In this document: in pieces, positions 4,547 to 28,600 of the stretch
Layout of the letters: the number at the start of each line of letters is the position of its first letter
How positions within the stretch are numbered: position 1 is the stretch's first letter
Virus record (IMG/VR): IMGVR_UViG_3300020441_000003
Location: 25,546 to 89,545 of that record
Length of the DNA: 64,000 nucleotides
From: a virus
Lineage: Duplodnaviria; Caudoviricetes
Reading direction: 5' to 3' (one strand)
Notes under the pieces: generated by a model
The model's input: the letters and a program-made list of their open reading frames with translations, nothing else
The model's database searches: none
Told to the model about the DNA's origin: nothing
Made by a program: the position numbers and the translations under genes

Positions 4547-5263
4547 TTAGTAAATAAAGTCGCCGTTTTCATCTACTTCCCACTCTAAATCATGATTTTT
4601 TATGTTCTGTCTTTCTCGTCCACCAGTCACATCCCAATTAAAAGAAATACTGTATCTATCTTTTTGAGTTAGATTAGGTTCGACCATATGCATGAGACCA
4701 CTAGGAAAAAGATATAGATCACCAGTCTTTGGTCTAACTCCCCATGACTCCCATATTCTTGCCTGTGAAGAAGGAAAGTTTGAAACTATTTTATGGTCTG
4801 TATCAACCATTCTAAGATCACCCTCATCTCCTTCTGCTTGAATAAAGAATACACCTGAATAAAAACAACCATTATGTAAGTGTGGGGCGTTCCAAGCGCC
4901 TGGATAGTTAATGTTTGCCCATGAGTTATGCAACTCTATCTTTGCTGAATCTTTTTCGATTCCGAGAAAAGGAACAAGTTCATCTCTAAATTCTCTTTTA
5001 ATTTGTCTTAATGCACGAATAAAAACAGGATTTTTATCTATACCATCTATTGATTGCCAACCATTTCTATTAGATATATTTCTACCTTTGGGGTCACGCT
5101 TTCTCATTGCATCAATTTCTTCTTTCAATGCAACCATATATTCTGGTGTAATCTCAGAACATTTATCTCTATCAAGATATTGTTTAGTTAAAACGAATGT
5201 TGGAAATAATAATTTAATCATCTTTTTCACTCTTATGAAAAGGACACTCAGGTGGTGGTTCAT
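4547..5263 (-). CDS. 2OG-Fe(II) oxygenase-like protein (TIGR02466-like)
   Basis: WANINYPGAWNAPHLHNGCFYSGVFFI...GDLYLFPSGLMHMVEPN...RYSISFN. Real start probably the second Met (MIKLLFPT). Confidence 0.82.
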   Translation of the reverse strand: MNHHLSVLFIRVKKMIKLLFPTFVLTKQYLDRDKCSEITPEYMVALKEEIDAMRKRDPKGRNISNRNGWQSIDGIDKNPVFIRALRQIKREFRDELVPFLGIEKDSAKIELHNSWANINYPGAWNAPHLHNGCFYSGVFFIQAEGDEGDLRMVDTDHKIVSNFPSSQARIWESWGVRPKTGDLYLFPSGLMHMVEPNLTQKDRYSISFNWDVTGGRERQNIKNHDLEWEVDENGDFIY

Positions 5264-6053
5264 CTTCTTTATAGAACTGACCTTTCTCTTGCCAATATCC
5301 TTCTAGACGATAAGGACCCATTTTACCGTCTTTCTTCATGTCATCATATTTAGTTCGACCCATTTCATCCATTGTTGGCATATCATCATGTGCAGTATAC
5401 TTACTTCTATTATCGTGCCAAGTTTGTGAATCTTTCAATTGATATGTTGCAACCCATTCTTCCCTTTTGTAAGGTATTATTTGAACTAATGGTGTGCCTT
5501 TCTTAATTACAAATGAATGGTCTACTTTTGGATAAAAAATTATTTGTGAGTTATCATAATTAGTATTAAACTTATCTGTATCAATTATTCCATGCCATGT
5601 AGAAAAGAATTTGTTTTGATGTAAAAATGGGTCAACATAAAAACAAGAATATCCTGGCGGTGTTTTAATATTCCAGGCACTTCTCATTTTAAATGCATCT
5701 CTAACTGGATTATCACCACCTAGATATTCAAATGTATGGTCTACTTGATCTGCTGGGTGTGATGGCGAATTGTAATTGCCTTTCTCATCTTTAGTTATAT
5801 AACTAGAACTGTTTTCTGAAAATCTATCAGCGCCTACTAAAACTTGCATATCTCTATTTGCAGTTATAAACCATCCTGATTTTGTCCAGTCATGCATAGC
5901 TGGACATGCACGAATAGTCTGAGTAAACTTACCTCTAATAGATTGATTTACTTTCATTTTTTTCCACCAATCAGGTAATAAACTCTTTGCAAGAACTGGT
6001 TTAAAGTCTCTTAAACTATCTTCATTGAATGTTATAAAGTCTATTGTAGGCAT
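5214..6053 (-). CDS. Conserved phage protein, beta-rich (dUTPase/cupin-like fold suspected)
   Basis: TIRACPAM...W.IKTPPGYSC...KKGTPLVQIIPYKREEW pattern, often found beside phage oxygenases. Confidence 0.6.
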   Translation of the reverse strand: MPTIDFITFNEDSLRDFKPVLAKSLLPDWWKKMKVNQSIRGKFTQTIRACPAMHDWTKSGWFITANRDMQVLVGADRFSENSSSYITKDEKGNYNSPSHPADQVDHTFEYLGGDNPVRDAFKMRSAWNIKTPPGYSCFYVDPFLHQNKFFSTWHGIIDTDKFNTNYDNSQIIFYPKVDHSFVIKKGTPLVQIIPYKREEWVATYQLKDSQTWHDNRSKYTAHDDMPTMDEMGRTKYDDMKKDGKMGPYRLEGYWQEKGQFYKEDEPPPECPFHKSEKDD

Positions 6054-6724
6054 GTTAATTCTACCTCGTCCCCTCTCAATACGATTGATCTTCTATCTGC
6101 ATATCTAGCTCTTTCGTTAGGCGCATCTGCACCGTGTGGTATTCTTCCGTCAAACATAAGTAATCTATTTGGTTTAAAATCAACTTCTGCTATTTGATGA
6201 TTTTCTATATGTTCATTTCTGCCTTCTAAACCTTGTTGATGTTCATTATAAAATCTCAATGTTCCGCCCCAATCATCATTCCAAAAAGTATTGTAATAGT
6301 ATAGAAAAGATAAATTATAATCATCATCTTTGTCACAATCTGAATGTGTAGTTCCGTGTTGACCATATGTTTGTGAATTAGTTCCCATATATTGAAATCT
6401 TATCCAATCAAATCCAAAATCAGTTTTTATTTTATCATTCAAATATTTTGCCATATATGTATATTGTTTTGGAATATCTTCAATCATTTGACCATTTTTT
6501 GCAGTAAAGAAACTTGAACCCCAAAATTGATGGTGAGGCAAACCTGTTTTACTTTGACCTCTAACAGAATTTGTTTTAGACCATGTTGGCATATTTGTTA
6601 TCTGTTGATTTAAAAAATGATGCAATGATTGTTCTAGATAATTGTCTATTACATATACTTTATCTAAAGGCAATTTATCAATATGAAAAGGTTTATCAAC
6701 CTTAACTATTTCTAAAGAGTTCAT
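6041..6724 (-). CDS. 2OG-Fe(II) oxygenase (prolyl hydroxylase-like)
   Basis: HSD (HxD), WNDDWGGTLRFY, PNRLLMFDGRIPHGA...R.SIVLR. Confidence 0.88.
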   Translation of the reverse strand: MNSLEIVKVDKPFHIDKLPLDKVYVIDNYLEQSLHHFLNQQITNMPTWSKTNSVRGQSKTGLPHHQFWGSSFFTAKNGQMIEDIPKQYTYMAKYLNDKIKTDFGFDWIRFQYMGTNSQTYGQHGTTHSDCDKDDDYNLSFLYYYNTFWNDDWGGTLRFYNEHQQGLEGRNEHIENHQIAEVDFKPNRLLMFDGRIPHGADAPNERARYADRRSIVLRGDEVELTCLQ

Positions 6725-7275
6725 TAGTCTATGAAAGCTTTTTGTGGTGGCGGTATTAGATTTGCATAATCTTCAAATGGTTTTAAAACATCTTCTCTAG
6801 TTGACTGTATTTCATTAGCAACATTGATGTATACATTCCAGACGGCATCATAATACTCTAATACTCTTCTTGCATCTGATCTTAAAGGGTGATTTGAACC
6901 CTCTCTGCCAGCCGCTATAACATCTATAGAATCTGTGAATCCATATGATTCAGATTGTTGATACACATAATCTTTACACATTTCATTTAGATTTTCTGAA
7001 TATTGATTGTTTAGATTTACATTTTCTGGTGGTGCAGAATTTTCAATGTAAGTTTCTATTGCATCTATTTCAGTATCGTTTAGATTTACTTTCACTTGTT
7101 CATCAAAACAGACATTATCTTTCCATTCTAGTATTTTAACTTCTATGTCGTCATAGACTACAACATCGTATTCAAATCCTAATTCAGGTTTATCTGTATT
7201 TTCAAAGTTGTATTGTAATCCATTCGGTTTTCTAACAGTTAGAGTTCCGTTTTCATCGTATATAAACATATTCAT
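6724..7275 (-). CDS. Tail-fibre assembly chaperone-like protein
   Basis: C-terminal YGF.D.I.V...S.HP.R.DA..VLEYYDAVW pattern resembles phage fibre chaperones; lies just downstream of the fibre genes. Confidence 0.5.
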   Translation of the reverse strand: MNMFIYDENGTLTVRKPNGLQYNFENTDKPELGFEYDVVVYDDIEVKILEWKDNVCFDEQVKVNLNDTEIDAIETYIENSAPPENVNLNNQYSENLNEMCKDYVYQQSESYGFTDSIDVIAAGREGSNHPLRSDARRVLEYYDAVWNVYINVANEIQSTREDVLKPFEDYANLIPPPQKAFID

Positions 7276-7292
7276 AATAACTCCATTATATC

Positions 7293-8831
7293 TTAATTGT
7301 TATGTTTTGCCAATAGTTTTTCGTAAATATTTAGGTGTTGTATCTCAGATGTATCCATACCCTCAATCCAAGGTCCGCCTCTTGTGTAATGAACTGCAAG
7401 TGGTCTCCATACTTTATCTGTATATGCATGTCCTTCTGTAATTACAAACCATTCTGGTATTTCTGATATTGCATCAGTCCATTCAAATTGATGTAAGTAT
7501 TTTCCTGTTTCTGTATTCACTACTTCTGGTGTTAGTTTTTTACAGTCTTCATGACCATTATTAAATATCATAAGCGAGGACCAAAGTTTCTTCGGATATG
7601 ATACATTCTTTTCACCTGTAAATTTAGTTTCAGGATACTTATCAAAGTCGTATTGTATACATGCAACTGCATCATCAGGATTCATAAAGTAAAACATAGG
7701 TAAAATACTTCCGTCAAATAGAATATCATCATCTAAAAAGATACTAAATCCTTCATAGTTTTCTAAATGTGGTATTAAAAATCTACTATATGTAAATTCA
7801 GTAGATTGATTTGCATAGTCTCTAGTATACTCAGGTATCTTTGAAATGTCAAGAAACTTTATTTCTGGTCGCCATTTAGACATCGAACCATTGATATCAC
7901 CTCCACCAAAACCATGATTTATACCTTTCTCTAAACATTTTTTACATAAGTCTGCAAGGTCTGTATGTCTTGAATCATAACCAACATATATGTTTAGTGG
8001 TTTACCTTTACATAACTTAGATACTTTTCTATTGAACTCATATACATTTTGTCTGAAAGATGTTTGAACTGATGCTTCGCAAGATATCTCTATGTAACCA
8101 TTAGAATAATTAAACGATATATTCTTATGACCTTTTTTTGTAAATTCATTTTCTTTTACATCTTCTATCAGTTCTTCAATAGTATATTCTGGTGAATCTA
8201 TAACATCAAACTCGTCCCAAATCCACATTGGCAATGTAGGGTCATCAAGTATTTCGAAGACACCTGATCTTACAGAACCTGGGTGTATTGCGAGTCTATA
8301 TTTATCATTGTGTCCTTCATTTACTTTACCTTGAATAGGATTCCAAAGTCCTTCTTTTCTAATACTGTCAATCAACCAATGTGCCTTTGCAGAATGATAA
8401 TAAGAAGAATTTAATGCATCTCTCTTTCTACCCTCATACTCATAGTCTACATTAGTAAAGTCACAATGATTACCTATTTCTTCATATTCATCATTAACAT
8501 TTTTAAAGTCCATGCCAGATTTGCCTGGTTCTGGAAGTTCAGGTTTTTCAGTATACCCATAAGGCAAAAAATATTGATAAGTAAATGATTGTGATTGTAA
8601 TTGATTCCAACCCCACATCTTACCGTCTTTAATAAGTTGTGCGATTTCACCCCATGTAGTTTTTTTGAGTTTAATACCTAAATGATCTTTCAACCACTTA
8701 AATGTTTTGTATGCATTTTCATCTTCGTATGGTTGATCTACTTCAAAACCACCTAAATGGTAATGAAAAAATTTATCCTTAGGTTCAGAAAATGTTTCTT
8801 TAACTTGTTCTAGAGTTTTTGATTTCATCAT
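7293..8831 (-). CDS. Fusion of a ParB/Srx-like domain and a GT-A (GT8-like) glycosyltransferase
   Basis: C-terminal IYVGYDSR...TEFTYSRFLIP...IFLDDD (DxD)...YPKKLWSSLMIFN...VHYTRGGPW; middle LIDSIRKEGLWNPI...IHPGSVR. Confidence 0.78.
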   Translation of the reverse strand: MMKSKTLEQVKETFSEPKDKFFHYHLGGFEVDQPYEDENAYKTFKWLKDHLGIKLKKTTWGEIAQLIKDGKMWGWNQLQSQSFTYQYFLPYGYTEKPELPEPGKSGMDFKNVNDEYEEIGNHCDFTNVDYEYEGRKRDALNSSYYHSAKAHWLIDSIRKEGLWNPIQGKVNEGHNDKYRLAIHPGSVRSGVFEILDDPTLPMWIWDEFDVIDSPEYTIEELIEDVKENEFTKKGHKNISFNYSNGYIEISCEASVQTSFRQNVYEFNRKVSKLCKGKPLNIYVGYDSRHTDLADLCKKCLEKGINHGFGGGDINGSMSKWRPEIKFLDISKIPEYTRDYANQSTEFTYSRFLIPHLENYEGFSIFLDDDILFDGSILPMFYFMNPDDAVACIQYDFDKYPETKFTGEKNVSYPKKLWSSLMIFNNGHEDCKKLTPEVVNTETGKYLHQFEWTDAISEIPEWFVITEGHAYTDKVWRPLAVHYTRGGPWIEGMDTSEIQHLNIYEKLLAKHNN

Positions 8832-8846
8832 ATAGTTTCATAATAT

Positions 8847-10055
8847 TTATCCAGTTATAGGACTGCCTGGCCACGAACCTGCTGGGTCACCGTCCCACCT
8901 AATTACAGGCGTTCTGCCTTGTCTTGCATATGTAGACGGACTTCTGTGATTGTATGTAAAAGGTGTTCGACCTTGTCTTGCATAAGTCGATGGTGATCTA
9001 TGGTTATAAGTCAACGGACTTCTATGTTGATATGTCAAAGGACTTCTATGTTGATATGTGCCAGGTTGTCTTGAATCTCTAATATTAGGTTCTTGTGCAT
9101 TTGAAGCCACTTGATAGATTGCAGGTTGTCTTGCATCTCTAATATTAGGTTCTTGTTGGTTTCTAATAAACGGATTCTGTGCATTAACAATAGAAGGCTG
9201 TTGTTGGTCACGAATATTAGGTTCTTGTGCATTTGAAGCCACTTGATAAATCAATGGTTGTCTTGCATCTCTAATGTTCGGTTCTTGTCCAGCCCTTATA
9301 AAAGGATTTTGTGCATTGGCAATAGAAGGCTGTTGTTGGTCACGAATATTTGGTTGTTGTGCGTTTGAGGCAACTTGATATATAAGAGGTTGTCTCGCAT
9401 CTCTAATATTAGGTTCCTGTTGGTCTCTAATAACAGGTTGTTGATTAGCTCTTATATTTGGTTCTTGTCCTGACCTGATATTTGGTTCCTGTGCATTTGA
9501 GGCCACTTGATAAATTAGTGGTTGTCTTGCATCTCTAATGTTTGGTTCTTGTTGCGATCTTATATTTGGTTCTTGTTGGTCTCTTATATTAGGTTGTTGT
9601 GCTGAACGAATATTTGGTTGTTGTGCATTGGAAGCCACTTGATAAATTAGTGGTTGTCTTGCATCTCTAATGTTTGGTTCTTGTGCATTTCTGATACTTG
9701 GTTCTTGAGCCGACCTGATATTTGGTTGTTGAGAAGACCTAATATTTGGTTCTTGTGCTGATACAGGATTTCTATATGTGAAAGGCGACCTGTGATTATA
9801 TGTAAAAGGCAACTGATAACCAACAGGGTTTCTGTAACCGAATGGTGATCTATGATTATATGTAAACGGATTTCTGTATGTAAAGGGCGACTGAAATGTA
9901 AATGGTTGTTGTCCTGCTACAGGGTTTCTATATGTAAATGGATTTCTATATGAATATGTTTGTTGACCAGACACAGGTGACCTATAAGTGAAAGGGTTTC
10001 TTCCACTGTTTGGTTGTCTTGCGTTTGCTATTGTTGGTTGCTGTGCTGACGGCAT
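8847..10055 (-). CDS. Octapeptide-repeat fibre protein (xxQEPNIR-rich partner)
   Basis: 8-aa repeats with invariant Pro; five DARQPLIYQVAS-containing units with 44-aa period. Confidence 0.85.
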   Translation of the reverse strand: MPSAQQPTIANARQPNSGRNPFTYRSPVSGQQTYSYRNPFTYRNPVAGQQPFTFQSPFTYRNPFTYNHRSPFGYRNPVGYQLPFTYNHRSPFTYRNPVSAQEPNIRSSQQPNIRSAQEPSIRNAQEPNIRDARQPLIYQVASNAQQPNIRSAQQPNIRDQQEPNIRSQQEPNIRDARQPLIYQVASNAQEPNIRSGQEPNIRANQQPVIRDQQEPNIRDARQPLIYQVASNAQQPNIRDQQQPSIANAQNPFIRAGQEPNIRDARQPLIYQVASNAQEPNIRDQQQPSIVNAQNPFIRNQQEPNIRDARQPAIYQVASNAQEPNIRDSRQPGTYQHRSPLTYQHRSPLTYNHRSPSTYARQGRTPFTYNHRSPSTYARQGRTPVIRWDGDPAGSWPGSPITG

Positions 10056-10058
10056 AAA

Positions 10059-11891
10059 CTATTTCGGTAAACCGCCCCCTGGATTCATATTTTCCATGTT
10101 ATGCACTAACATACCATTAGCAAAGAAATTATGATTTTCATTTACTCCCGATAAGTTATATACTTGCATGTCTGTGTTTTCGTTTATAGAAATTATTTCT
10201 AATCCTACATCGTCTGTTCTGTCAAACATAATCGCATCTGTCATTGAGAATAAACTATCACCAACTTTAAGTTCATGAGAGTTTACGCCCTCCATCCAAT
10301 CATGTTGTCTCTGACATTTTTCAACATCAAATGCTCCCCATTCTCCGTTAGTCATCATTAGTGGATGACTATCTGTGACTTGTAATATTCTTCCGTCTGA
10401 TAACTCTACATCATATATAGAGTCTATTCTTGGTACCATCACATGATATATTGATTTTGGTTCTATTATCTTTGTGCTTTCGTTCCAAGTCATTATGTAT
10501 TGTCCATTCACACAATGCTCGATAGGCGCATGACTGCCATCTCCTAACCAAATCATTGTGCCAGGTGCGAAACAACCGCCACCAAATGGTATCTGAATCG
10601 GATTTCTATGTTGATATGTAAACGGCGATTGAGATGTAAATGGTTGTTGTCCGTTTACAGGATTTCTATATGTAAATGGTGTTCTTCCTATAACTGGTTG
10701 TTGTCCATTTACAGGGTTTCTGTATGTAAATGGATTTCTTGCACTATTCGGTTGTCTTGCATTACTTGGTGATTGTGCTGACCTAATATTTGGTTCTTGT
10801 GCGTTTACAGGATTTCTATATCCTCTCGGCGTTCTTGCATTTCTGATATTAGGTTGTTGACCAGATACAGGTGATCTATAAGTGAAAGGCGATCTATGCT
10901 GATATGTAAACGGTGACCTATGGCCATAAGTAAGAGGCGATCTAAAGTTATAAGTAGACGGACTTCTATGTTGATATGTAAACGGCGCTTGATAACTTCT
11001 AGGGTCTTGATATATAGAAGGCGATCTATGTTGATATTCAAACGGACTTCTATGTTGATAAGTTGTAGGCGATCTATGTTGATAAGTTGCAGGTGACCTA
11101 TGTTGATATGTAAACGGCGCTTGATAACTTCTAGGGTCTTGGTATATAGAAGGCGATCTATGTTGATATGTAAACGGTGACCTGTGTTGATAATTAGACG
11201 GACTTCTATGTTGATAAGTTGTAGGCGATCTATGTTGATATGTAAATGGCGCTTGATAACTTCTAGGGTCTTGATATATTGACGGACTTCTGTGTTGATA
11301 TATTACAGGCGTTCTTAAATTATATGTAGACGGACTTCTATGCTGATATGTAAACGGACTTCTGTGTTGATATGTAAAAGGCGTTTGATAACTTCTAGGG
11401 TCTTGGTATATTGAAGGCGATCTATGTTGATAAATTATCGGTGTTCTTAAATTATATGTAGATGGACTTCTGTGTTGATAAGTTGCAGGCGACCTGTGAT
11501 TATATGTGAAAGGTACCTGATAACTTCTCGGGTCTTGATATATTGACGGACTTCTGTGTTGATATGTAAAAGGCGTCTGATTACTTCTTATATTAGGTTC
11601 TTGTTGTGACCTTATATTGGGTTCTTGTTGGTCTCTAATTACAGGTTCTTGTGCATTCGCAATATAAGGATATGGTTGTTGGCCATTTCTAATAAAAGGA
11701 TTTTGAGCGTTCGCAATATAAGGATAAGGCTGTTGAACGCTCTCCTGTCCTGATGCATTGTTCCAACCAGAAGGCGTTTTGATATAGATTTGATCTACAT
11801 CTTTCCATGTGCCTGAAGCTGTTTTTACCCAAGCACCTCGGGTTGCTGACCAACCTGAAGGAGTTTTTACCTTTTGTGAACCTGTTGCCAT
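10059..11891 (-). CDS. Octapeptide-repeat fibre protein (QHRSPxTY-rich) with N-terminal WVK docking domain and C-terminal Hint domain
   Basis: N-terminal KVKTPSGW..WVKT..WK; five QDPRSY units with 44-aa period; GGG|CFAPGT...HNFFANGMLVHN. Confidence 0.88.
   Translation of the reverse strand: MATGSQKVKTPSGWSATRGAWVKTASGTWKDVDQIYIKTPSGWNNASGQESVQQPYPYIANAQNPFIRNGQQPYPYIANAQEPVIRDQQEPNIRSQQEPNIRSNQTPFTYQHRSPSIYQDPRSYQVPFTYNHRSPATYQHRSPSTYNLRTPIIYQHRSPSIYQDPRSYQTPFTYQHRSPFTYQHRSPSTYNLRTPVIYQHRSPSIYQDPRSYQAPFTYQHRSPTTYQHRSPSNYQHRSPFTYQHRSPSIYQDPRSYQAPFTYQHRSPATYQHRSPTTYQHRSPFEYQHRSPSIYQDPRSYQAPFTYQHRSPSTYNFRSPLTYGHRSPFTYQHRSPFTYRSPVSGQQPNIRNARTPRGYRNPVNAQEPNIRSAQSPSNARQPNSARNPFTYRNPVNGQQPVIGRTPFTYRNPVNGQQPFTSQSPFTYQHRNPIQIPFGGGCFAPGTMIWLGDGSHAPIEHCVNGQYIMTWNESTKIIEPKSIYHVMVPRIDSIYDVELSDGRILQVTDSHPLMMTNGEWGAFDVEKCQRQHDWMEGVNSHELKVGDSLFSMTDAIMFDRTDDVGLEIISINENTDMQVYNLSGVNENHNFFANGMLVHNMENMNPGGGLPK
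10098..10574 (-). other. Hint (intein-like) autoprocessing domain, non-splicing type
   Basis: Block A CFAPGT at residue 440, block B VTDSHPL, block F VYNL, block G HNFFANGMLVHN; residue after HN is Met; no endonuclease insert. Confidence 0.9.
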
Positions 11892-18112: not shown

Positions 18113-18886
18113 TTAATCGCTAAATTGTGCAGTAGGTACCGATTGATGTATTTTTTCTACTGTCGAACTATCTTTTTTCACAAATACTTGACTTACTTTC
18201 GATACACCTTGTGCTTGTTTCTTAAATACACCTTTAACTTTTGCTACTTGTTGTATAGGTCTAGTTGTAATATATGGTTGTTGATATATAAACGGACTTC
18301 TATACCCATATGGTAATGTATATGGTTGTTGAGTATTAGCAGATGTTTGTGCGTTTCTTATAAAAGGACTTTGTGCATTCGAAGGATTCCTATAAGTTGA
18401 CGGCGATCTATGTTGATACTGTATAGGACTTCTATGATTATAAAAAGTCGGTGATCTATGTTGATAGATTACTGGTTGTCTAGAATCTCTGATATTAGGT
18501 TCTTGTTGGTCTCTTATATTTGGTTCTTGTGCATTTCTAATATGTGGATTTTGTCTTTCAGCAGGTTGTCTTCCGATATATGGACTTTGTGCATTTTTAA
18601 TTACAGGTTCTTGATACGCAACAGGATTTCTGTAGAATGCAGGTTGTTGTTGAGCTCTCTCGTTAGGTTGTTGAGCATCTGCGATATACGGATATGGTTG
18701 TTGTTGACTTCTAATAAAAGGATTTGCTTTATTTCTAATAAAAGGATTCTGCACACTGTAAGTTGACGGTGATCTATGTTGATACGAAGATGGTTGTCTT
18801 GCATTTCTGATATGTGGATTTTGCACATCATAAGATGCAGGTTGTCTTGCAATTATCGGAGTTGTAAACTGATATGCTACGCCCAT
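18113..18886 (-). CDS. Octapeptide-repeat fibre protein with C-terminal docking domain
   Basis: QEPNIR/QNPFIR/QHRSP repeats; C-terminal KVKGVFKK..VSKVSQVFVKK. Confidence 0.82.
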   Translation of the reverse strand: MGVAYQFTTPIIARQPASYDVQNPHIRNARQPSSYQHRSPSTYSVQNPFIRNKANPFIRSQQQPYPYIADAQQPNERAQQQPAFYRNPVAYQEPVIKNAQSPYIGRQPAERQNPHIRNAQEPNIRDQQEPNIRDSRQPVIYQHRSPTFYNHRSPIQYQHRSPSTYRNPSNAQSPFIRNAQTSANTQQPYTLPYGYRSPFIYQQPYITTRPIQQVAKVKGVFKKQAQGVSKVSQVFVKKDSSTVEKIHQSVPTAQFSD

Positions 18887-18889
18887 TGC

Positions 18890-20467
18890 TTATTCTCCCT
18901 CTTCCTCGTCATCATTATTAGATTCAGCACTGGCACCAACTGCAAAAACAATTAGTAAATCACATTTATGTTCTACATTTGTGTCTAAATCTTTTATCAT
19001 AAATTCTAAAATAGTTGATGAACCCCTATTATCAGCTGCGGAACCCTCACTTCCGTTAGTATCAACAGTAGTGCTATAACCTATTTCAAGTCCGTGGGTG
19101 CCTAGATTTTGATATGAAGTTGTTATTCCAGTCACACCAGTCGGAACTCCTAAAGCATGTTTTCTAGTAGTGGTCTCATCTGGATTACCATCATTGGTAG
19201 TTACCGAAGTCACACCAGTGGTTGTTCGTGGCCATTGCTCTGGTGTGCCTAAGCATCCCATATCACTTGCTAGTTCAGCATAATTAGATGCATCTGGAGT
19301 ATATCCCTTACTGGCAAGTTGACCATTCCATTGTGAGACATTTAAACTGTAAGGAGATGCTGTCGGGTTTGCATAATTAACTTTTACTTGAGCTCTTGAA
19401 GCTCCTATATTTGTAAGTTTAAATATTTGAGAAAAAGAAGAAGTTCCTATATCACTGGTTGTATAACTAAATGAACTAGATGCTGATGATGACATATTAC
19501 CTATTCTAGAATGATGTGGTGTCGTATTTGATAAAGTATCAACTGAACTAGCCTCTCTTACAAGAATTTCAACATCATTAGTATTTGTATATTGAACTTT
19601 AAATTCAAATCCAGCACCTGCTACGGCAGTTGAACCAGAGGCACTTGTATCTAAATCAAATCCACCATCAATACCAATAATACTTGAAGCTCCTTGTTGT
19701 CTTATTGAATTGCCAGTGTTCGTATCATTTGGTATACCAGCACCTGTGCCAAATCCTGTTATAAGTTCTGATGCTCTTGCAATATATTCAACTTGACCTA
19801 CTGTTAAAAATCCTGATGCAGGTTGTTGATGACTGTAAGTTGTTTGATATGAACCTATTGACGGACTTCTAAAGACATATGTAAATGGTGTTTGTGCGTT
19901 TCTTATAAACGGATTTTGTGCATTTGCAATCGATGGTGATCTATGACTATATGTGCTTGGACTTTGATGCTGATAGATAACTGGATTTCGACCTGTCGCC
20001 TGATATGAAGACGGACTTCTATGTTGATATATTATAGGGTGTCTGTATGCAACTGGACTTCGATAAGTTCCTGGTGATCTATGTTGATATGTTGAAGGCT
20101 GTCTTGCTTGATAACTTACCTGATAAATCGATGGTGATCTATGTGAATATTCAAATGGACTTCTATGGTTATAAGTCAACGGACTTCTATGTTGATATGT
20201 AAACGGAATCTGTTGCGCTCTAATATTAGGTTCTTGTTGTGACCTTATATTAGGTTCTTGTTGGTTTCTAATAAAAGGATTCTGTGTTGCTACAGGATTC
20301 TGATATGTTGACGGTGATCTATGAGCGTAAGTAGAAGGAACCTGATAGATTGCAGGAGTTCTTGCATCTCTCTGAGCAATTACTGGTTCTTGTGCGTTCT
20401 TTGATGCCCTAGCTATATAAGGTTGTTGAAAGGCCGCTGGGTGTTTGATAAAAATATCATCTGACAT
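18890..20467 (-). CDS. Octapeptide-repeat fibre protein with C-terminal globular (putative receptor-binding) domain
   Basis: N-terminal ~215 aa of QHRSP/QEPNIR repeats, then ~300 aa Ser/Thr/Gly-rich non-repetitive domain. Confidence 0.8.
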   Translation of the reverse strand: MSDDIFIKHPAAFQQPYIARASKNAQEPVIAQRDARTPAIYQVPSTYAHRSPSTYQNPVATQNPFIRNQQEPNIRSQQEPNIRAQQIPFTYQHRSPLTYNHRSPFEYSHRSPSIYQVSYQARQPSTYQHRSPGTYRSPVAYRHPIIYQHRSPSSYQATGRNPVIYQHQSPSTYSHRSPSIANAQNPFIRNAQTPFTYVFRSPSIGSYQTTYSHQQPASGFLTVGQVEYIARASELITGFGTGAGIPNDTNTGNSIRQQGASSIIGIDGGFDLDTSASGSTAVAGAGFEFKVQYTNTNDVEILVREASSVDTLSNTTPHHSRIGNMSSSASSSFSYTTSDIGTSSFSQIFKLTNIGASRAQVKVNYANPTASPYSLNVSQWNGQLASKGYTPDASNYAELASDMGCLGTPEQWPRTTTGVTSVTTNDGNPDETTTRKHALGVPTGVTGITTSYQNLGTHGLEIGYSTTVDTNGSEGSAADNRGSSTILEFMIKDLDTNVEHKCDLLIVFAVGASAESNNDDEEEGE

Positions 20468-22388: not shown

Positions 22389-22611
22389 GTAATTTCTCTA
22401 TAATATCTTTCAATAAATCTTTTATTTCTGTTACCTCTTGTTTAAGAGTATTTATTTCAGAACGCTGAGCTTTCATAACTTCTCTGCGTTTCATCACTAA
22501 TCTATAATGTTCAGTATTAGTATTTATTATAGCACTTGAAGTTTCATCTCTTATCAAGTCTATATGTCCTTCTACTTTACTATACTTACTCATTATGCTA
22601 ATGCCATACAT
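22381..22611 (-). CDS. Conserved small coiled-coil protein
   Basis: KVEGH.DL.RD..S.AIINT...EINTLKQEV; usual neighbour of the DUF4815 gene. Start probably MSKY. Confidence 0.65.
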   Translation of the reverse strand: MYGISIMSKYSKVEGHIDLIRDETSSAIINTNTEHYRLVMKRREVMKAQRSEINTLKQEVTEIKDLLKDIIEKLHG

Positions 22612-25600
22612 CTAAGTGCTGATACTAATGGCACGATAGATGTATTCTGTGCTTGTCCTACTATCTTAATCTGGAATGCTGTGAACTCTGCAAGACCATC
22701 TGCTGTATATTCATATTCTTTAAAGTTTCTAGCATCTTGTTCAAGTGCGATATCTGGTGAACCATCTGTGTTAAAGAATTCAAATCCTAAATCATCGATA
22801 GGTGTTGTTTCATCGTTCTTCAATATCTTGAACATGAATTTTAAATCTGTGTCTGGCGGTCTAAAGTTATCTGCAATAACTTTTATTGATGATGCAGGAT
22901 TTTTCAATGCAACTTTTCTTGTTATATAAACAAACTCATTATTATCACCGTCTGGTTCTGTAGATGGTGTGTAAGCTCTTCCTGTTGATACATCGCCTGA
23001 TACATCAATATCATTAATTCTATTCATGATACCTAATGCACCTATTGTGCCTGTATCTATGATTGGTGATATATTTGGATTTGCAGTTATTAATTGCAAT
23101 CTACATTCTAATGATTTTGTTGTAGGTCCACCTGAAACTTCATTGACTTCATTAACAGATGATGCAATAACACTTGGTCTTTCAAAGAAGTTATTATCAT
23201 TTAATGTTATAAAGTCATTTGTTGATCTCATGAGATATGCAGTGTCTAAACTTGATGATTCTGGAGAATTCATACCTGTTCTTCTTACACTCGGTATTAA
23301 ATCACAATCTTTAAATGTTAATGATGGTATCATTGTATGTAATACATCGTAATATAAATTATTTGTCACAAATACACTGCTACCACCACCTATTGTAGAT
23401 TGTATAGCGTTAGTATATGATAAATGGAAACTTGATAAATCAGGTGTCACGCAGAATGAATCTATATCGTAATGGTTTATACTATTGAATACTTGATTCA
23501 ATGCTGATACAGGTAAACCACCTAGTGTATCACCTACACTTGCAATTGTCAATGAGACTGCTGTGCCTGAACCATTTACATCTGCAACTGTTATTGTTTC
23601 GTTAGCTGCATATCCTTGACCTGGATTACTAATAGTTGCACTTGTAGCATTACCAGATGCATCTGTTGTTATTGTTTGTATTACACAACCACCATTTGGA
23701 TTACCACTTGAATTTGAATGTGTTTGAGTTTTAGCACTTACATTAAATGTTGTGCTGTTTGAACCTAATGCAGTAGAAGGAACACTAACTGTTAATACAC
23801 CATTAGTTTTATCACCTGCTACTCCTGATATTACAACATTTGAATTTGTTGAATAATTACCGTGTGAGTATGAATAGAATCTAGCAAATGATTGATTACT
23901 GTATACTTCTACACTGTTCTCTTTTATTAGATTTGCAGGTAAATGTTCGTTTTCAAATATGACATTTCCTGCAACATTTGTTGTAAACTTGGCTATCTTC
24001 ATATGGAACTTTAAGTCGTCCATTTGTTCTGCACTCCAAGTAGATGCGTTTTGTGAAGTAAATAATGAACCTGCGTATGGTTGTCCTGATATTACTTGAC
24101 CTGTTATTAAGTCTACTTCTCCCATTCTTGAAATGAAACACTCGTAATTGTTTGAATTTGAGTAAACAACAAAACACATTTCTTTGCCTTCTTCAAGATA
24201 TACAGGTGATTCAAAACTAAATGTAGTTGCAACTGAACCATCTTCTGATATGTTTACATCTCCTGGATTCTTTGTGACTATTGAGAATGGTAATGTCACT
24301 TTACCAGGATATCCGTTTACTACATCTCTAATTTCTACTGAAACTGGTAATGATGCATCTTTTGATTTAAAGAATAGATCAATAGAAGTCAACATCATAC
24401 CGCCATCTGCTTCTACTAAGAAAGTTTCTGCTAATGGGTCCATCCATCCTTCGTTTGTTCTCTCTGCTCTAAACACTCTTTCATCATCTGGCGCCACAAA
24501 TCTATCGAATGGTGGAACTGGAGGTTGAACAGGCAACGGCACAGGCGTTGGTGCAGGTGTCGGTGCTGGCGTAGGCGCTGGTGTCGGCGCTGGAGGCGGA
24601 GGCGGAGGTGGATTAGGTGTCAACGCCGGAGTTGGAGGCGGAGGCGGTGGCGGAGGAGGTGGCGGTGGTGCTGGAGGCGGTGGAGGTGGAGTTGGTGGTA
24701 ATGAACCATCACTCTCAATATTTAATCTTTCACCTCTTCTCATTATCTGCCTTTCGCCAGACAATCTCTCCATAATTACACGGCCATTTCTTGTAGATAC
24801 TATCTCTGTTTGAGATGTATTTAATAATCCTTGTGCCTGATAATTAGAACTTGCTCTTGAATCAGGATTGTTTAAATTAGTTGCACTAGATGTGACTAAT
24901 ACTTGTCTTTGACCTGTAGGGAATCTCTGATTATCGTCATTTGGTATGTTAAAATGACATATAACTCTTCCGTTACCATCTGTTTTTACACCAGATGTCA
25001 CTGTCGTGCCTGAGTCTTGTGAATAGTTTGCATTGTCAGGTCTTACAAATTGGTCTACTCTAATACCATCAAAGTATATAAAGTGATTTGTGTTTGGTTT
25101 TAAATTTGTTGCATCAATCTTAATCTCTCTTGATCTGATGAAAGGTATAACTGATACACTAACAACTCTGTCATTTCTTGTTTCTACAAAGTCTTCAACT
25201 ACTGATGTTCTTACACCTGTTCTTGATTGTATCTCAGGCGTATCTGTAATTTCTCTAGTTATTGTTGTGCCTTGTGTCCATTCACCGCCTTGAGCTGGGT
25301 CGCCAGACCAAGAACCTGGTACTGCAGCTACTGATTCTGTCTCTACGACTTGTGGTTCACCGACCCATGTTGTTTGCCATTCATTCCAGACTGTTCCTAG
25401 AGAGTTTTCGTTTTCTGCTAATACTGCATCAAAGTTTCCTTCTCTGTTAATCCTGACATCAGGAAGTTGTTCGTGGTCATTCCATATATCTGTTTCTGGT
25501 GTAAGTTTAACATTACCAATAAATGCAAAGACATGATATGGGTTTACATTGATATGTCTTGATGCTTTATTTTGATTTACATAAGATATTTCTGAAAATG

Positions 25601-28600
25601 GTAATGTAATAAGATCACCAGTCTTTTGATAACCTGATGATTGTGCAGTGTTTAATGAAATATCAAAGAATTGTGTATAATTTTTAGGTCTTAAATGACC
25701 TAATTTTGTATCTATTGCAACATTGTAATCTGGATGTGTGACATCTCCTACTTTGTGACCTCTAAAATTATCTACTAAAAATCCTGATTTGAATCTATCT
25801 AAACCATCTGCATCTAAAACTTGTAATGTTTGTGTGTCTTTTTCTAATAAAGATAATGCTGTGACTCTTTCTAAGTTTGTGACTCTTTGATTAATTTTAC
25901 CAATATCTGACATGGTAAATCTTCTATAATCTCTTGACCTTGAACGAATCTCATTTGCATTTTTAGTAAATGGTGGCACAAACAATTCGAACATTTCAAT
26001 CGCATCATCTATGGCGGCTGGTTTTCTAGGCGTAATCGAAGGAACACCTTGTGCTAATTGAAAACTTCCACTTTTGTGTAAGAAAATCTTATCTATTCTA
26101 GGCACATAAAAAGATATATTACCTTTTGTCATAGAAGTTGGTAATGGACATCTAGAGAACGATGCTCTAGTTGTTGTAATACTTGGAGATGATAACGATG
26201 CCTCAAAACTTCTTGACTCATATGCAAATGGTGATACTAAATGACCTGCACTTGAATGATCTGATAAGTTTATTGTATTCTGTATATCAAAGTCGGTACT
26301 AGATTGACCAAATGTAGAACTTCCAAATATTTGACCAACAGATGGTCTATAGTCTACTGTATCTGCTAATTCAAATGTTCCGTCTGGTTCAAAACCACCT
26401 GCATCTACTTTATTTGGCGAGAATATTGGTATTTCATCATAATCAACACCAGAATAAGAAGATACATCATAATAATCACCAGAACCACCAACAAAGTAAT
26501 CAAACAATATTGTTATCGGGTTATTAGGTGTTGGTTCACCTGTCTTTAATATTAATTTACCAAGATCGTAATAACCATCTCTTTGACCGTTATCTAAGAA
26601 ATATCTATTTTTAATATCTGGTGAACTTGTGCCAATAGATGTTAGTGTTGCAACTGCACCTGATGTTTCGTCTACTACAGTTTCGCCTGCTGTAAATTTA
26701 GCATTACCAAGATAGTAGAAAAATGCAGTAGTATCATCTACAACTGTATCAATAAGTTTTGCACGAACACCTGTTGTTTGTCCTTTTACAATATTACCTG
26801 CACCAAATGTTCCTGACGATACATTAAATACTGCGTTTGGTGGTGTTGCGACTTCTACACTTTCTGAACTATCTGTTGTTGTAGTTCCTGGAACTGCTTC
26901 GAATATACCTCTAATTTTAAATATATCTGATACACCTAAACTGATTTCTTTGTGGTCATATGCAGTTCCATAAAAGTTTGTTTGTGCATCACTCTTCATT
27001 ACTCTTAATGCACGATACTCTCTTAAATCTTTACTCTTTGCAGTTGGGCTATTTACACTTACTGTATATGATGCTCTTACAATAGCATTTTCATCAGCAG
27101 ATGTTCCTATTGTGACTGCTCTGTTATTACCTGAGGCAGCTGCAAATGTCACATCGTCAGCATGAAATACTGCACCATCGATTCTCCCACTTGATGGACT
27201 TGCAGTTGCATTCATAATTGCAAATTGATAATTATCGTTATTAACTGGTTCAAAACTTTCGTTTGATTGTTTTGTTAATGTAATGGTACCACTTGCACTA
27301 ACTTGAAATTCTTTTTGTATTTTGACTGTAGTTTCTGTGCCTGTATGTGTTTTGACATAATCTCTTGGCCATGCAAAGATAGATGCTGACTGATCTTGAT
27401 TATAAAGTTTTGCTCTCTTTCTAATAAGACCTGCACCTGGATTTGCAATTACACCATTTGAACCAGGTGATGCAACTGTTTGTGCATTTGAATTATCTGT
27501 GACTGTATTAATTACTTGTTCAGCACCATTACCATCTACAATTATATCGCCTGGTCTTAATTCGTTTAAGAATGCTGTTCCTGTTCCTGTTAATGCACCA
27601 CTTGATGACAATACTGTTGCACCCGATATAATTTTAACACTATCTGTTGGTATAGTTGCAGTGAAGTTTTTGTCTGCACTTGAAGCAGTTGATGGTTCTT
27701 GACCAACACCTCTTGCATCTTCTATATTATAAGTTCTGATAGCAGTTGGATTTACTGTTGTGCTACTATAATCACCAACACCTTTTACTTCTAATGCATC
27801 TGCTGTAGTAAATGTGCCGACTACATCATGCAACATTACAAAGTTATTTGAATGGTCTGAATATGCAACTATACCTGTTGCACCTGAACCACCAGCACTT
27901 GTGCCAGTATCTACAATACCTGTGACTTTATCACCTGGTTTAAATTCGTTTGCATCACCAATTGTAATACTAATTTTTGTAAACATCTTGATATCAAATA
28001 GATATAGATTGCTTAATGTAGATGATTGTTCATCTATGCATCTTACTCTTGCAAAACCGATATGTGTGTTAGGTATTGTATTTCTTGTTGATGCATCTGA
28101 TTGATCAATAACAGTATCTAAAAGTTTGATAGGTTTATATGATGTCATTGTTGTAGAATCACCAAACTCTGGAAGACCATGCACATTTTGTAATCTTAAT
28201 TTATTACCTAATCTCGCAGGTGTATTTGCGTTTGATAATGATTCTGTTGTTCTTGCTTTATTGATGTTTAGATTTGTTGTGCCGTCTTTTGTGACATCAA
28301 AACCTTTGACATATGCTTTACCTGGTGATATTTGCATGACGACTTTACTTTCGTCACCACCTTGGAATGATTCGTAAAAACCTCTATTGAAACCATCTAT
28401 TAAATGTTCTCTGAACGAACTTGTAAATTGTCTTACTACAAAGTCACCGTTTGCATCAAAGGTTCTTCTTGCTAATGCTTGTTCTATGTGACCATATATT
28501 GGTCTATTGATTTCTAATTCTATAACACCTGCATTTACTCTTCCAAGTTCTACAAAGTTTGTATCTGTTGTGTCTGTTAAACTAAATTTAGAAAGTGTTA

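Follow-up and report, generated by a model that had tools for sequence, protein, structure and literature searches.

Mirrored repeats in two adjacent genes suggest a two-chain fibre in a pelagimyophage-like marine phage

A repeat gene pair among fibre, baseplate and neck genes

The window, a 64,000-nt stretch of DNA from an uncultured, T4-like tailed phage of marine origin, encodes on its minus strand a 610-aa protein, here called U for its upstream gene, and its 402-aa neighbour, D. The ORF list places both where the first-pass annotation had put them. Two octapeptide units with Pro at position 5, A (QHRSPxTY) and B (xxQEPNIR), recur in the two chains, and TRF detects a 132-nt (44-aa) period with about five copies in each gene. 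The window also holds a second, paralogous pair, U2 and D2, and a cassette of genes downstream of U and D.

10059..11891, minus strand: gene U, 610 aa, with an N-terminal overhang, repeat tract, Hint domain and short tail (ORF list; Pfam Intein_splicing match)
11787..11891, minus strand: U residues 1-35, a conserved N-terminal domain of three KTxxGxW-like strands that overhangs the D C-terminus (pair alignments)
10575..11786, minus strand: U repeat tract, residues 36-439, with a B-type head (10,8,10,8,8,8), a switch unit, five 44-aa super-repeats (A units plus two hexapeptides), an RNPV/hexapeptide tail and poly-Gly (Pro spacing, mirror alignment)
10886..11570, minus strand: U super-repeat array, 132-nt period, ~5.2 copies (TRF)
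10098..10574, minus strand: Hint (intein-like) autoprocessing domain, U residues 440-598, with Cys1 (GGG/CFAPGT), TDSH block B at position 67 and a terminal VHN (Pfam PF14890)
10062..10097, minus strand: 12-aa tail (MENMNPGGGLPK) after the Hint HN, forming the U C-terminus (homologue comparison)
8847..10055, minus strand: gene D, 402 aa, all repeat tract, with an RNPV/hexapeptide head, five 44-aa super-repeats (B units plus a 12-mer), a switch unit, an A-type tail (8,8,8,10,8,10) and a C-terminal cap (ORF list, Pro spacing, mirror alignment)
9081..9758, minus strand: D super-repeat array, 132-nt period, ~5.1 copies (TRF)
8850..8900, minus strand: D C-terminal cap RWDG..WPGSPITG, residues 386-402, nearly invariant and opposite the U IKTPSGW motif (alignment and mirror alignment)
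18890..20467, minus strand: U2, the upstream chain of pair 2, 525 aa, with a repeat tract at about residues 1-225 and a 300-aa variable C-terminal domain (Pro spacing, mirror alignment)
18113..18886, minus strand: D2, the downstream chain of pair 2, 257 aa, with a mirror tract and a C-terminal overhang of about 32 aa (mirror alignment)
4547..8831, minus strand: cassette downstream of the pair, with a ParB-like/GT8 glycosyltransferase (7293-8831), p183, a 2OG-Fe(II) oxygenase of PF13640 type (6041-6724), p279 and a 2OG-Fe(II) oxygenase, PF13759 (4547-5263) (Pfam; synteny)

The U and D genes lie between VrlC-like and fibre genes on one side and the gene for neck protein gp13 on the other, surrounded by fibre, baseplate and neck genes. 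This position falls within a host recognition cluster of the type described for pelagimyophages (PMC7029224) and is one where a T4-like virion fibre would be encoded, and we infer that U and D form a fibre of a T4-like phage virion. Neither protein matched a known fibre family in Pfam or PHROG. The order of the cassette genes is the same in every locus long enough to show it, and this synteny makes the cassette enzymes possible modifiers of the Pro-rich chains.

Searches of the GenBank phage collection (megablast, tblastn) found no cultured phage with the pair, the only matches there being those of the Hint domain to Vibrio phage helicase inteins, and a search of the whole HTVC008M genome returned no match. 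Near-identical DNA does occur in public runs from marine metagenomes of several studies. Logan contigs end inside the repeat arrays, such that array lengths cannot be confirmed from them, and RNA-library contigs touch both genes, one of them spanning the U/D junction, which is no proof of transcription.

The N-terminal domain of U is strongly conserved (mean column identity 83%), found no meaningful match in PDB or Pfam, and is the putative virion attachment end. A Pfam Cementoin match at U 393-421 was put down to the low-complexity resemblance of Gln/Pro hexapeptides.

Mirrored spacing within the pair and across its homologues

Read from P55 toward the C-terminus, the Pro-to-Pro spacing of U is 10,8,10,8,8,8,8,[6+6],(8x4,[6+6])x4,8x4,6,6,8,6,6,8,6x8,8, and that of D, read from P383 toward the N-terminus, is 10,8,10,8,8,8,8,[12],(8x4,[12])x4,8x4,6,6,8,6,6,8,6,6,6,6,[12],6,6,8. 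Over 376 residues these spacings are identical, the 12-mer of U being two hexapeptides and that of D a unit with one Pro, and 47 of the 51 D prolines have a mirror counterpart in U. Shuffling the D intervals gave a mean of 17.8 and a maximum of 33 mirrored prolines, with none of 5000 trials attaining 47, and the best parallel alignment of the two chains matched 32 prolines compared with 47 in the mirror. Reverse-strand DNA similarity between U and D is absent (7 HSPs only, all with E above 0.27, against 154 same-strand HSPs), and the mirror is therefore not the product of a DNA inversion. Because the self-mirror scores of U and of D are at background, neither chain is an intrachain hairpin.

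The first-pass annotation had read U from N to C against D from C to N, and the mirror alignment reproduces the facing elements that it listed: NAQNPFIR opposite NHRSPSTY, the 10-mers (QQPYPYIA.. opposite ARQGRTPFTY), BBB opposite AAA, the switch unit SNQTPFTY opposite DSRQPGTY, five 12-aa inserts opposite five 12-aa inserts spaced by four A against four B, and the RNPV regions opposite each other. Its two-octapeptide vocabulary describes the A and B units correctly but is incomplete, as hexapeptide units (RNPVxx and xxPFTY) are also present. Likewise, the rule that A faces B holds broadly but is not the whole rule, as RNPV-type units face themselves and many Y-ending hexapeptides lie opposite Y-ending units.

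Facing units are of complementary types. B lies opposite B in only 18 cases against about 150 expected, RNPV opposite RNPV is 8-fold enriched, R/Q opposition occurs at P-2 in 79% of facing units, and H-R, L-V, N-A and Y-A/G pairs are seen at P-3/P+3. Covariation between U and D, at positions on opposite sides of Pro, is robust to within-pair shuffling (z 18-54), although these statistics are inflated by phylogenetic and duplication history, since all homologous pairs come from one phage lineage. Even gaps make up 95.8% of Pro gaps, and 97% of prolines share one parity across hundreds of residues; mostly even gaps fit continuous beta-strands. The exact residue register is ambiguous, as good scores are obtained both with Pro facing Pro and with a shift of 2 residues.

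We collected 46 distinct U-D pairs from IMG/VR (about 50 related pairs overall), of which 40 standard pairs were used for counts of tract length and end facing. Across the 46 pairs, the Pro mirror match averages about 0.88 for cognate partners, compared with 0.515 for non-cognate partners and about 0.55 for cognate pairs aligned in parallel, and the cognate D is the top-scoring partner for 38 of the 46 U proteins. Spacing barcodes vary widely among loci and every pair still mirrors its own partner, including those in which gene order is reversed to D then U (L074-L082), so the expectation of the first-pass annotation that homologous loci would keep reverse-complementary strings was borne out in pairs with differing barcodes. 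U and D tracts, which range from 222 to 562 aa, have the same length within 2 residues in 36 of the 40 standard pairs. The four exceptions are L027, L036 and L045, off by 44 or 88 aa, and L052, off by 8 aa; a locus whose mismatch equals one or two of the 44-aa super-repeats could be an evolutionary intermediate.

The chain ends are also aligned. The last residue of D lies opposite U residue 36 in 30 of the 40 pairs and opposite residues 35-37 in 36, while D Met1 lies opposite the U residue that immediately precedes poly-Gly and Hint Cys1; in U proteins that lack a Hint domain, it lies opposite the residue that precedes the short tail. No natural U-D fusion was scored among proteins of 705-2010 aa, which is weak evidence.

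Pair 2 and its relatives follow the mirror rule with different barcodes, and cross-pairing of pair 1 with pair 2 chains (W1 x W2) gives a background-level match of 15/30. In pair 2, the proximal overhang domain is borne by D2, not U2. For the C-terminal domain of U2, which would sit at the distal end, only 13 relatives were found at E<=0.001. Together, the conserved mirror, the equal tract lengths, the second pair family and the complementary unit types support antiparallel pairing of U and D under a rule encoded in their sequences.

The Hint domain, a proposed fibre and its alternatives

U residues 440-598 match PF14890 (Intein_splicing) with 38.9 bits against a cutoff of 35.8, over profile positions 3-155 of 155, and match the DnaB and RadA mini-inteins weakly in PDB. 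Cys1 is present in 19 of 19 homologues and TxxH at position 65-70 in 18 of 19, and the domain thus shows both the above-threshold profile match and the position-1 nucleophile with TxxH that mark the Hint/intein superfamily. The terminal HN is conserved. At the +1 position the 19 homologues have M, F, G, L, Y, K, I or R but in no case C, S or T; in the window the residue there is Met, which is not a splicing nucleophile. A non-conserved tail of 4-27 aa follows, then a stop. The conserved HN without a Cys, Ser or Thr as the first C-extein residue rules out a splicing intein and indicates a cleaving, BIL-like Hint domain, which most likely cuts itself off between Gly439 and Cys440. Its absence from many homologous U proteins shows it to be dispensable.

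Bacterial intein-like (BIL) and Hedgehog-type Hint domains are autoprocessing modules, and the C-terminal domain of U resembles the cleaving BIL domains in its Cys1, TxxH and terminal HN with no +1 nucleophile. The Peptidase_S74 domains of phage fibres are self-cleaving C-terminal intramolecular chaperones; like them, the Hint domain stands at the C-terminus of a putative fibre protein and is probably removed, but it has a different fold. We know of no arrangement in which a Hint domain lies opposite the N-terminus of a partner chain, as here, where Hint Cys1 is 3 residues beyond the U position opposite D Met1. Because the mirror register would set the N-terminus of D (Pro2 after Met removal) 2-3 residues from a Gly439 thioester, it is conceivable, if improbable, that the D alpha-amine resolves this thioester and ligates U and D into one covalently closed hairpin fibre. 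Such a natural trans-ligation of proteins would proceed with no C-extein nucleophile, and would come on top of a programmable, barcoded antiparallel pairing code under which two orthogonal duplex fibres could form in the same cell.

From these sequence patterns, we think it likely that U and D, encoded in the host-recognition cluster of this pelagimyophage-like phage, form an antiparallel beta-duplex fibre. Each chain would be a long Pro-punctuated beta-strand former built from shared 6-, 8-, 10- and 12-residue units, and the two would run antiparallel over their full length, U residues 36-437 against D residues 402-1, in a beta-ribbon. At the level of units, HRSPxTY-type sequences would recognize QEPNIR-type sequences and RNPV would recognize RNPV; at the level of tracts, the aperiodic barcode of irregular units would admit only the cognate partner in one register. 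One end, probably virion-proximal, would consist of the 35-residue N-terminal domain of U and the conserved D cap, and at the opposite end the U poly-Gly linker and Hint domain would meet the D N-terminus, with Hint cleavage leaving the chain ends nearly flush. The needle that the first-pass annotation proposed would reach its 120-130 nm only if the chains were fully extended. The putative ribbon is rather polar on each of its two faces, so an isolated two-stranded ribbon of about 125 nm seems unlikely to be stable without higher-order assembly; a trimer of duplexes is probable.

The mirror and the covariation would fit transient pairing equally well, and D could be a dedicated assembly template or chaperone that pairs antiparallel with U to set its register or length and is absent from the mature virion. 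D is almost only counter-strand with no additional domain, and phage fibres commonly need dedicated chaperones, such as T4 gp38 and gp57A. We consider this role unlikely, however, as a residue-exact template of 222-562 aa used at 1:1 stoichiometry would be costly, the D cap faces the conserved proximal motif of U as expected of a permanent end structure, and a D chain that carries the proximal overhang, as in pair 2, sits poorly with absence from the virion. We also give little credence to separate folding of U and D, as monomeric beta-solenoids or as parallel homotrimeric beta-helices like T4 gp5C, with the finished rods then joined at their ends or lying alongside each other and the mirror arising from how they pack. 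The monomer model of D in the ESM Atlas, which is of low confidence (pLDDT 0.55), resembles right-handed beta-helices (Beta_helix/NosD; TM 0.63 by query), and by this model each chain alone may form a solenoid; the octapeptide periodicity recalls the gp5 triple beta-helix, and the U tail and D head are 77-78% identical when aligned in parallel, as if they were equivalent ends. Yet end-to-end joining explains neither equal lengths nor mirrored barcodes, the unit series (8,8,8,8,6,6 against 8,8,8,8,12) lacks the 3-unit periodicity that a triangular solenoid requires, and irregular units are nearly always even in length, which a solenoid with loops would not need. AF2 with a 38-sequence alignment of D yields no fold and no secondary structure (pLDDT 42), neither chain matches a Pfam beta-helix, and the xxxxPxxx units, in which neither Gly nor Val recurs periodically and for which Pfam and PHROG gave no match, depart from those of a T4 gp5-type triple helix.

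That same lack of predicted structure, a composition rich in Pro, Gln, Asn, Arg and Ser, and the constant adjacency of a P4H-type 2OG oxygenase and a GT8 glycosyltransferase would suit disordered, heavily hydroxylated and glycosylated mucin- or extensin-like bristles, with the mirror a by-product of concerted recombination between the genes. Disorder would not preserve residue-exact lengths, one Pro parity over 400 residues or partner-specific barcodes, and no DNA-level mechanism is visible, given the missing reverse-strand similarity and facing units of different types; we regard this reading as very improbable. A collagen-like triple helix is likewise at odds with periods of 6, 8, 10 and 12, a fixed residue that is Pro rather than Gly, and 96% even gaps. 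Prediction of the preferred duplex itself, from U 30-171 and D 266-402 with alignments, gave an ipSAE of 0.00 and a partner pLDDT under 50, which is evidence neither way, and an AF2 model of a natural Hint-less pair (L054), read through stops as one chain with a 5-sequence alignment, was unusable (pLDDT 36).

Meaning and relation to known systems

Our literature search found no description of such a mirror-coded two-chain fibre. If the chains do pair, they represent a natural recognition system in which partner and register are readable from linear sequence over hundreds of residues, combining unit-type complementarity with an aperiodic length barcode and keeping two pairs orthogonal in one phage. 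Such a system would introduce a new principle of phage-fibre architecture, would put about 50 orthogonal pairs at the disposal of protein designers, and would open a window onto host recognition in abundant, mostly uncultured marine myophages. It also raises the evolutionary question of how the gain and loss of repeats in two separate genes stay in step down to the single residue.

Parts of this arrangement have counterparts elsewhere. The C-terminal domain of T4 gp5 is a parallel homotrimer of VxGxxxxx octapeptides made without a second gene; U and D share with this phage needle a dominant 8-residue period and differ from it in their Pro at position 5, mixed units of 6, 8, 10 and 12 residues, and mirror partner. 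In the tandem beta-zipper, bacterial fibronectin-binding repeats reportedly bind fibronectin F1 modules, a disordered peptide of a few tens of residues lying on folded modules in a pathogen-host pair of proteins. There, as proposed here, antiparallel strand addition reverses motif order between partners and specificity is readable from linear sequence, but U and D would be a self-assembling two-chain fibre. The stalk of streptococcal antigen I/II is said to pair matched numbers of Ala-rich and Pro-rich repeats antiparallel, with a tip domain. As proposed for U and D, it joins two repeat types in matched numbers into a long fibre, but it is a non-phage protein whose single chain pairs an alpha-helix with a PPII helix through repeats of 82 and 39 aa, unlike the two chains, short even period (suggesting beta-strands) and aperiodic barcode of U and D.

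The tip needle of T4 gp37 (PDB 2XGF) reportedly consists of extended strands that run out and back, antiparallel, six in the trimer. Both of its arms belong to one chain, their lengths must match, and iron is coordinated by His in HxH motifs. U and D show no sequence match to gp37, gp37_trimer being only a weak ESM Atlas lead (0.79), and with arms on two chains, one His per A unit, no HxH and self-mirror scores at background they do not form a gp37-type needle. What the two have in common is a phage fibre, putative here, of antiparallel extended strands with arms matched in length; in U and D each arm is a gene product in its own right, 222-562 aa long, and the two carry the unit repeats, type complementarity and barcode that gp37 lacks.

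Mirrored proline spacing in neighbouring genes

The genes U and D (pair 1) adjoin in one reading frame with 3 nt between them (stop plus one codon; junction 10050-10062), and a second, paralogous pair, U2 and D2, lies in the same window.

10059-11891, minus strand: gene U, ORF of 610 aa
8847-10055, minus strand: gene D, ORF of 402 aa
18890-20467, minus strand: U2, 525 aa, of which 300 form a variable C-terminal domain
18113-18886, minus strand: D2, 257 aa, with a C-terminal overhang of ~32 aa
4547-8831, minus strand: cassette from the ParB-like/GT8 glycosyltransferase to the PF13759 2OG oxygenase, which always follows the pair

U consists of a conserved N-terminal domain (residues 1-35), a repeat tract (36-439), a 159-residue Hint domain (440-598) and a 12-residue C-terminal tail, and D is a repeat tract from Met1 up to a conserved C-terminal cap, RWDG..WPGSPITG. 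Over 376 residues, the prolines of U taken from N to C follow the same spacing as those of D taken from C to N; in both series a 10-8-10 signature marks one end and an irregular 6/8 series the far end, and five 44-aa super-repeats (8,8,8,8 plus a 12-mer) are also shared. The first-pass annotation had set the two proteins against each other in this orientation, with A units (HRSPxTY-type octapeptides) facing B units (QEPNIR-type octapeptides), and every unit pairing it listed was borne out in the printed alignment. The mirror takes in 47 of D's 51 prolines, compared with 32 in the best parallel alignment and a mean of 17.8 (maximum 33) over 5000 shuffles of the D interval order. U2 and D2 mirror each other with a barcode, or series of proline spacings, unlike that of pair 1 (24/30, a value reached by 0 of 5000 shuffles), and cross-pairing the two pairs gave background scores of 15/30 and 15/35. 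A Pfam Cementoin match (transglutaminase-substrate hexapeptide) at U residues 393-421 (window 10629-10715) is barely over threshold and probably reflects the compositional likeness of Gln/Pro hexapeptides.

The mirror across homologous loci

Scanning IMG/VR yielded 76 loci with a U homologue, representing 46 distinct pairs, and wherever the contig extended far enough (68/76 loci) a repeat-rich partner gene lay beside it. Barcodes vary widely from locus to locus, and each pair mirrors itself over its whole length. The expectation that homologous loci would keep the two strings mirrored thus held across the 46 pairs, and for 38 of the 46 U proteins the best mirror partner among all 46 D proteins was the cognate one. 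The mirror observation for U and D is confirmed.

Mean fraction of matching prolines
Mirror alignment with the cognate partner: 0.88
Parallel alignment of the same pair: about 0.55
Mirror alignment with a non-cognate partner: 0.515

The register is equally constrained at the chain ends. Among 40 standard pairs, in which D ranges from 222 to 562 aa, U residue 36 lies exactly opposite D's last residue in 30, and residues 35-37 do so in 36. At the other end, D's Met1 faces the residue directly preceding U's poly-Gly and Hint Cys1 or, where U lacks Hint, the residue directly preceding the short C-terminal tail. The 4 exceptions are off by 8 aa (L052) or, in three cases, by 44 or 88 aa (one or two super-repeats). 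The loci with tract differences of exactly 44 or 88 aa between U and D are L027, L036 and L045, and these reflect either collapse of the 132-nt repeat in assembly or genuine evolutionary intermediates. Six loci have D before U and keep the mirror; in L074-L082, where D comes first and U may or may not include Hint, the tracts are short (~190-215 aa) and mirror at 0.88-0.93. IMG/VR relatives of the second family also mirror (for example, 27/31 and 31/39 prolines). In the divergent pairs L052, L121, L122 and L124, D begins MPQQTYSYRV... or MPQGIYDYRV... and the proline mirror scores about 0.45, no more than background; loss of the anchoring proline from their units is possible. In L059, L062, L066 and L068, U ends in a ~145-aa domain (AVWGPYPVTGG...) that is not Hint, and a stretch of ~320 nt, possibly with a small ORF, lies between the two genes.

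Putative pairing rule and two-chain fibre

Across 1892 facing proline pairs, with B-type defined as ..PxI[R/A], B faced B 18 times against about 150 expected and faced Y-ending units 397 and 490 times, by orientation; RNPV-type hexapeptides faced each other 8-fold above expectation, and at P-2 R lay opposite Q, or Q opposite R, in 79%. P-3/P+3 pairs were H-R, Y-A/G, N-A and L-V; in the window, L-V takes the place of the usual H-R where the atypical A unit NLRTPIIY lies opposite the atypical B unit DQQQPSIV. In facing A and B units, excess mutual information joins the pre-proline residues of one chain to the post-proline residues of the other and persists under within-pair shuffling (z = 18-54). 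Common ancestry and the tandem duplication of paired super-repeats inflate all these statistics; the signal runs in the direction that an antiparallel arrangement would predict.

Even numbers make up 95.8% of 4429 proline-to-proline gaps, and within each tract a single parity accounts for 97% of prolines. P, Q, R, T and I are on one face, with Y, F, H, S, A and V on the other. The two-residue period is strictly kept in units of 6, 8, 10 and 12 residues alike, which would fit continuous beta-strands better than collagen/PPII, with its period of 3, and also better than a looped solenoid, since the latter would tolerate odd insertions. That each chain forms a stand-alone solenoid carries little weight: the ESM Atlas monomer model of D resembles a right-handed beta-helix, but at a pLDDT of only 0.55, and AF2 with 38 orthologues returned no structure for D. 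Neither chain mirrors itself, and an intrachain hairpin was rejected. So was an origin by DNA inversion, there being no U/D similarity on the reverse strand; same-strand similarities are many because the unit vocabulary is common to both (the U tail is 77-78% identical to the D head, the U body resembles the D tail, and the U head the D body).

The comparison across loci, a test able to refute it, supports antiparallel, sequence-coded pairing of U and D, and a two-stranded antiparallel ladder requires the residue-exact mirror found here. A Pro-on-Pro register gives 1683 P-P and 1432 aromatic-small pairs, and with the chains offset by 2 residues there are 1961 aromatic-small pairs and like charges do not clash; both are candidate registers. 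Because neither face is strongly hydrophobic, a lone ribbon seems less likely than a bundle, for which three duplexes, on the model of trimeric phage fibres, would be one arrangement. Fully extended, 376-400 residues of the putative fibre would span about 125 nm.

Of 19 homologues, 18-19 keep the Hint Cys1, the TxxH at position 67 and the HN at the end of the domain. None has Cys, Ser or Thr at +1, and the tail beyond is short and poorly preserved between homologues, on which grounds a splicing intein was rejected; the domain appears to be of the cleaving, BIL-like type. Hint comes after a poly-Gly linker at the very point at which the mirror alignment runs out, so that after cleavage the new end of U would lie almost level with the N-terminus of D. 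Many U homologues have no Hint domain, their C-terminus being a short tail or a different domain, which makes Hint dispensable for the proposed pairing. In the second family this position is taken by a domain of 170-345 aa that varies and has few relatives, as would be expected for a receptor-binding tip. The single overhang domain lies at the opposite end (U N-terminus in pair 1, D C-terminus in pair 2). Together these point to a common polarity, with an anchoring overhang at one end and whatever follows U's tract at the other.

Genomic setting and known systems

The window belongs to an 89.5-kb IMG/VR virus record whose baseplate protein gp6 shares ~40% identity with its counterparts in the Pelagibacter phages HTVC008M and Mosig and in Methylophilales phage Melnitz, which makes the phage an uncultured relative of the pelagimyophages, a marine T4-like myophage of low GC content. 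U and D have fibre-like genes on one side and, on the other, a fixed cassette that runs to a neck protein gene, a location corresponding to the host recognition cluster known from pelagimyophages (PMC7029224). Gene order is identical in all sufficiently long loci (fib485, p275, p136, fib824, [U, D], ParB-like/GT8, p183, 2OG oxygenase PF13640, p279, 2OG oxygenase PF13759, p271, gp13), a synteny that is not independent evidence because all loci come from one lineage. A metatranscriptome-library contig (run X15, 9904-10130, no differences) crosses the U/D junction, a hint, short of proof, of co-transcription. Elsewhere in the window, a VrlC-like structural gene (22593-29399, minus strand, 2268 aa) contains short Gly-rich tandem repeats at 24537-24699.

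In a large protein collection there are 406 relatives, unnamed and all from marine metagenomes, and near-identical DNA occurs in marine metagenomes of several studies (2014 to 2025). No U/D pair was found among cultured phages in GenBank, nor a description of a mirror-coded two-protein pair in the full-text literature. The PF13640 oxygenase is of the prolyl-hydroxylase type, and hydroxylation or glycosylation of the proline-rich chains by cassette proteins may be a reasonable lead; the genome of chlorella virus PBCV-1 has genes for both a prolyl 4-hydroxylase and proline-rich repeat proteins. In their own motifs, U and D differ from collagen, gp5 and gp37, each of which is defined by motifs absent from both chains.
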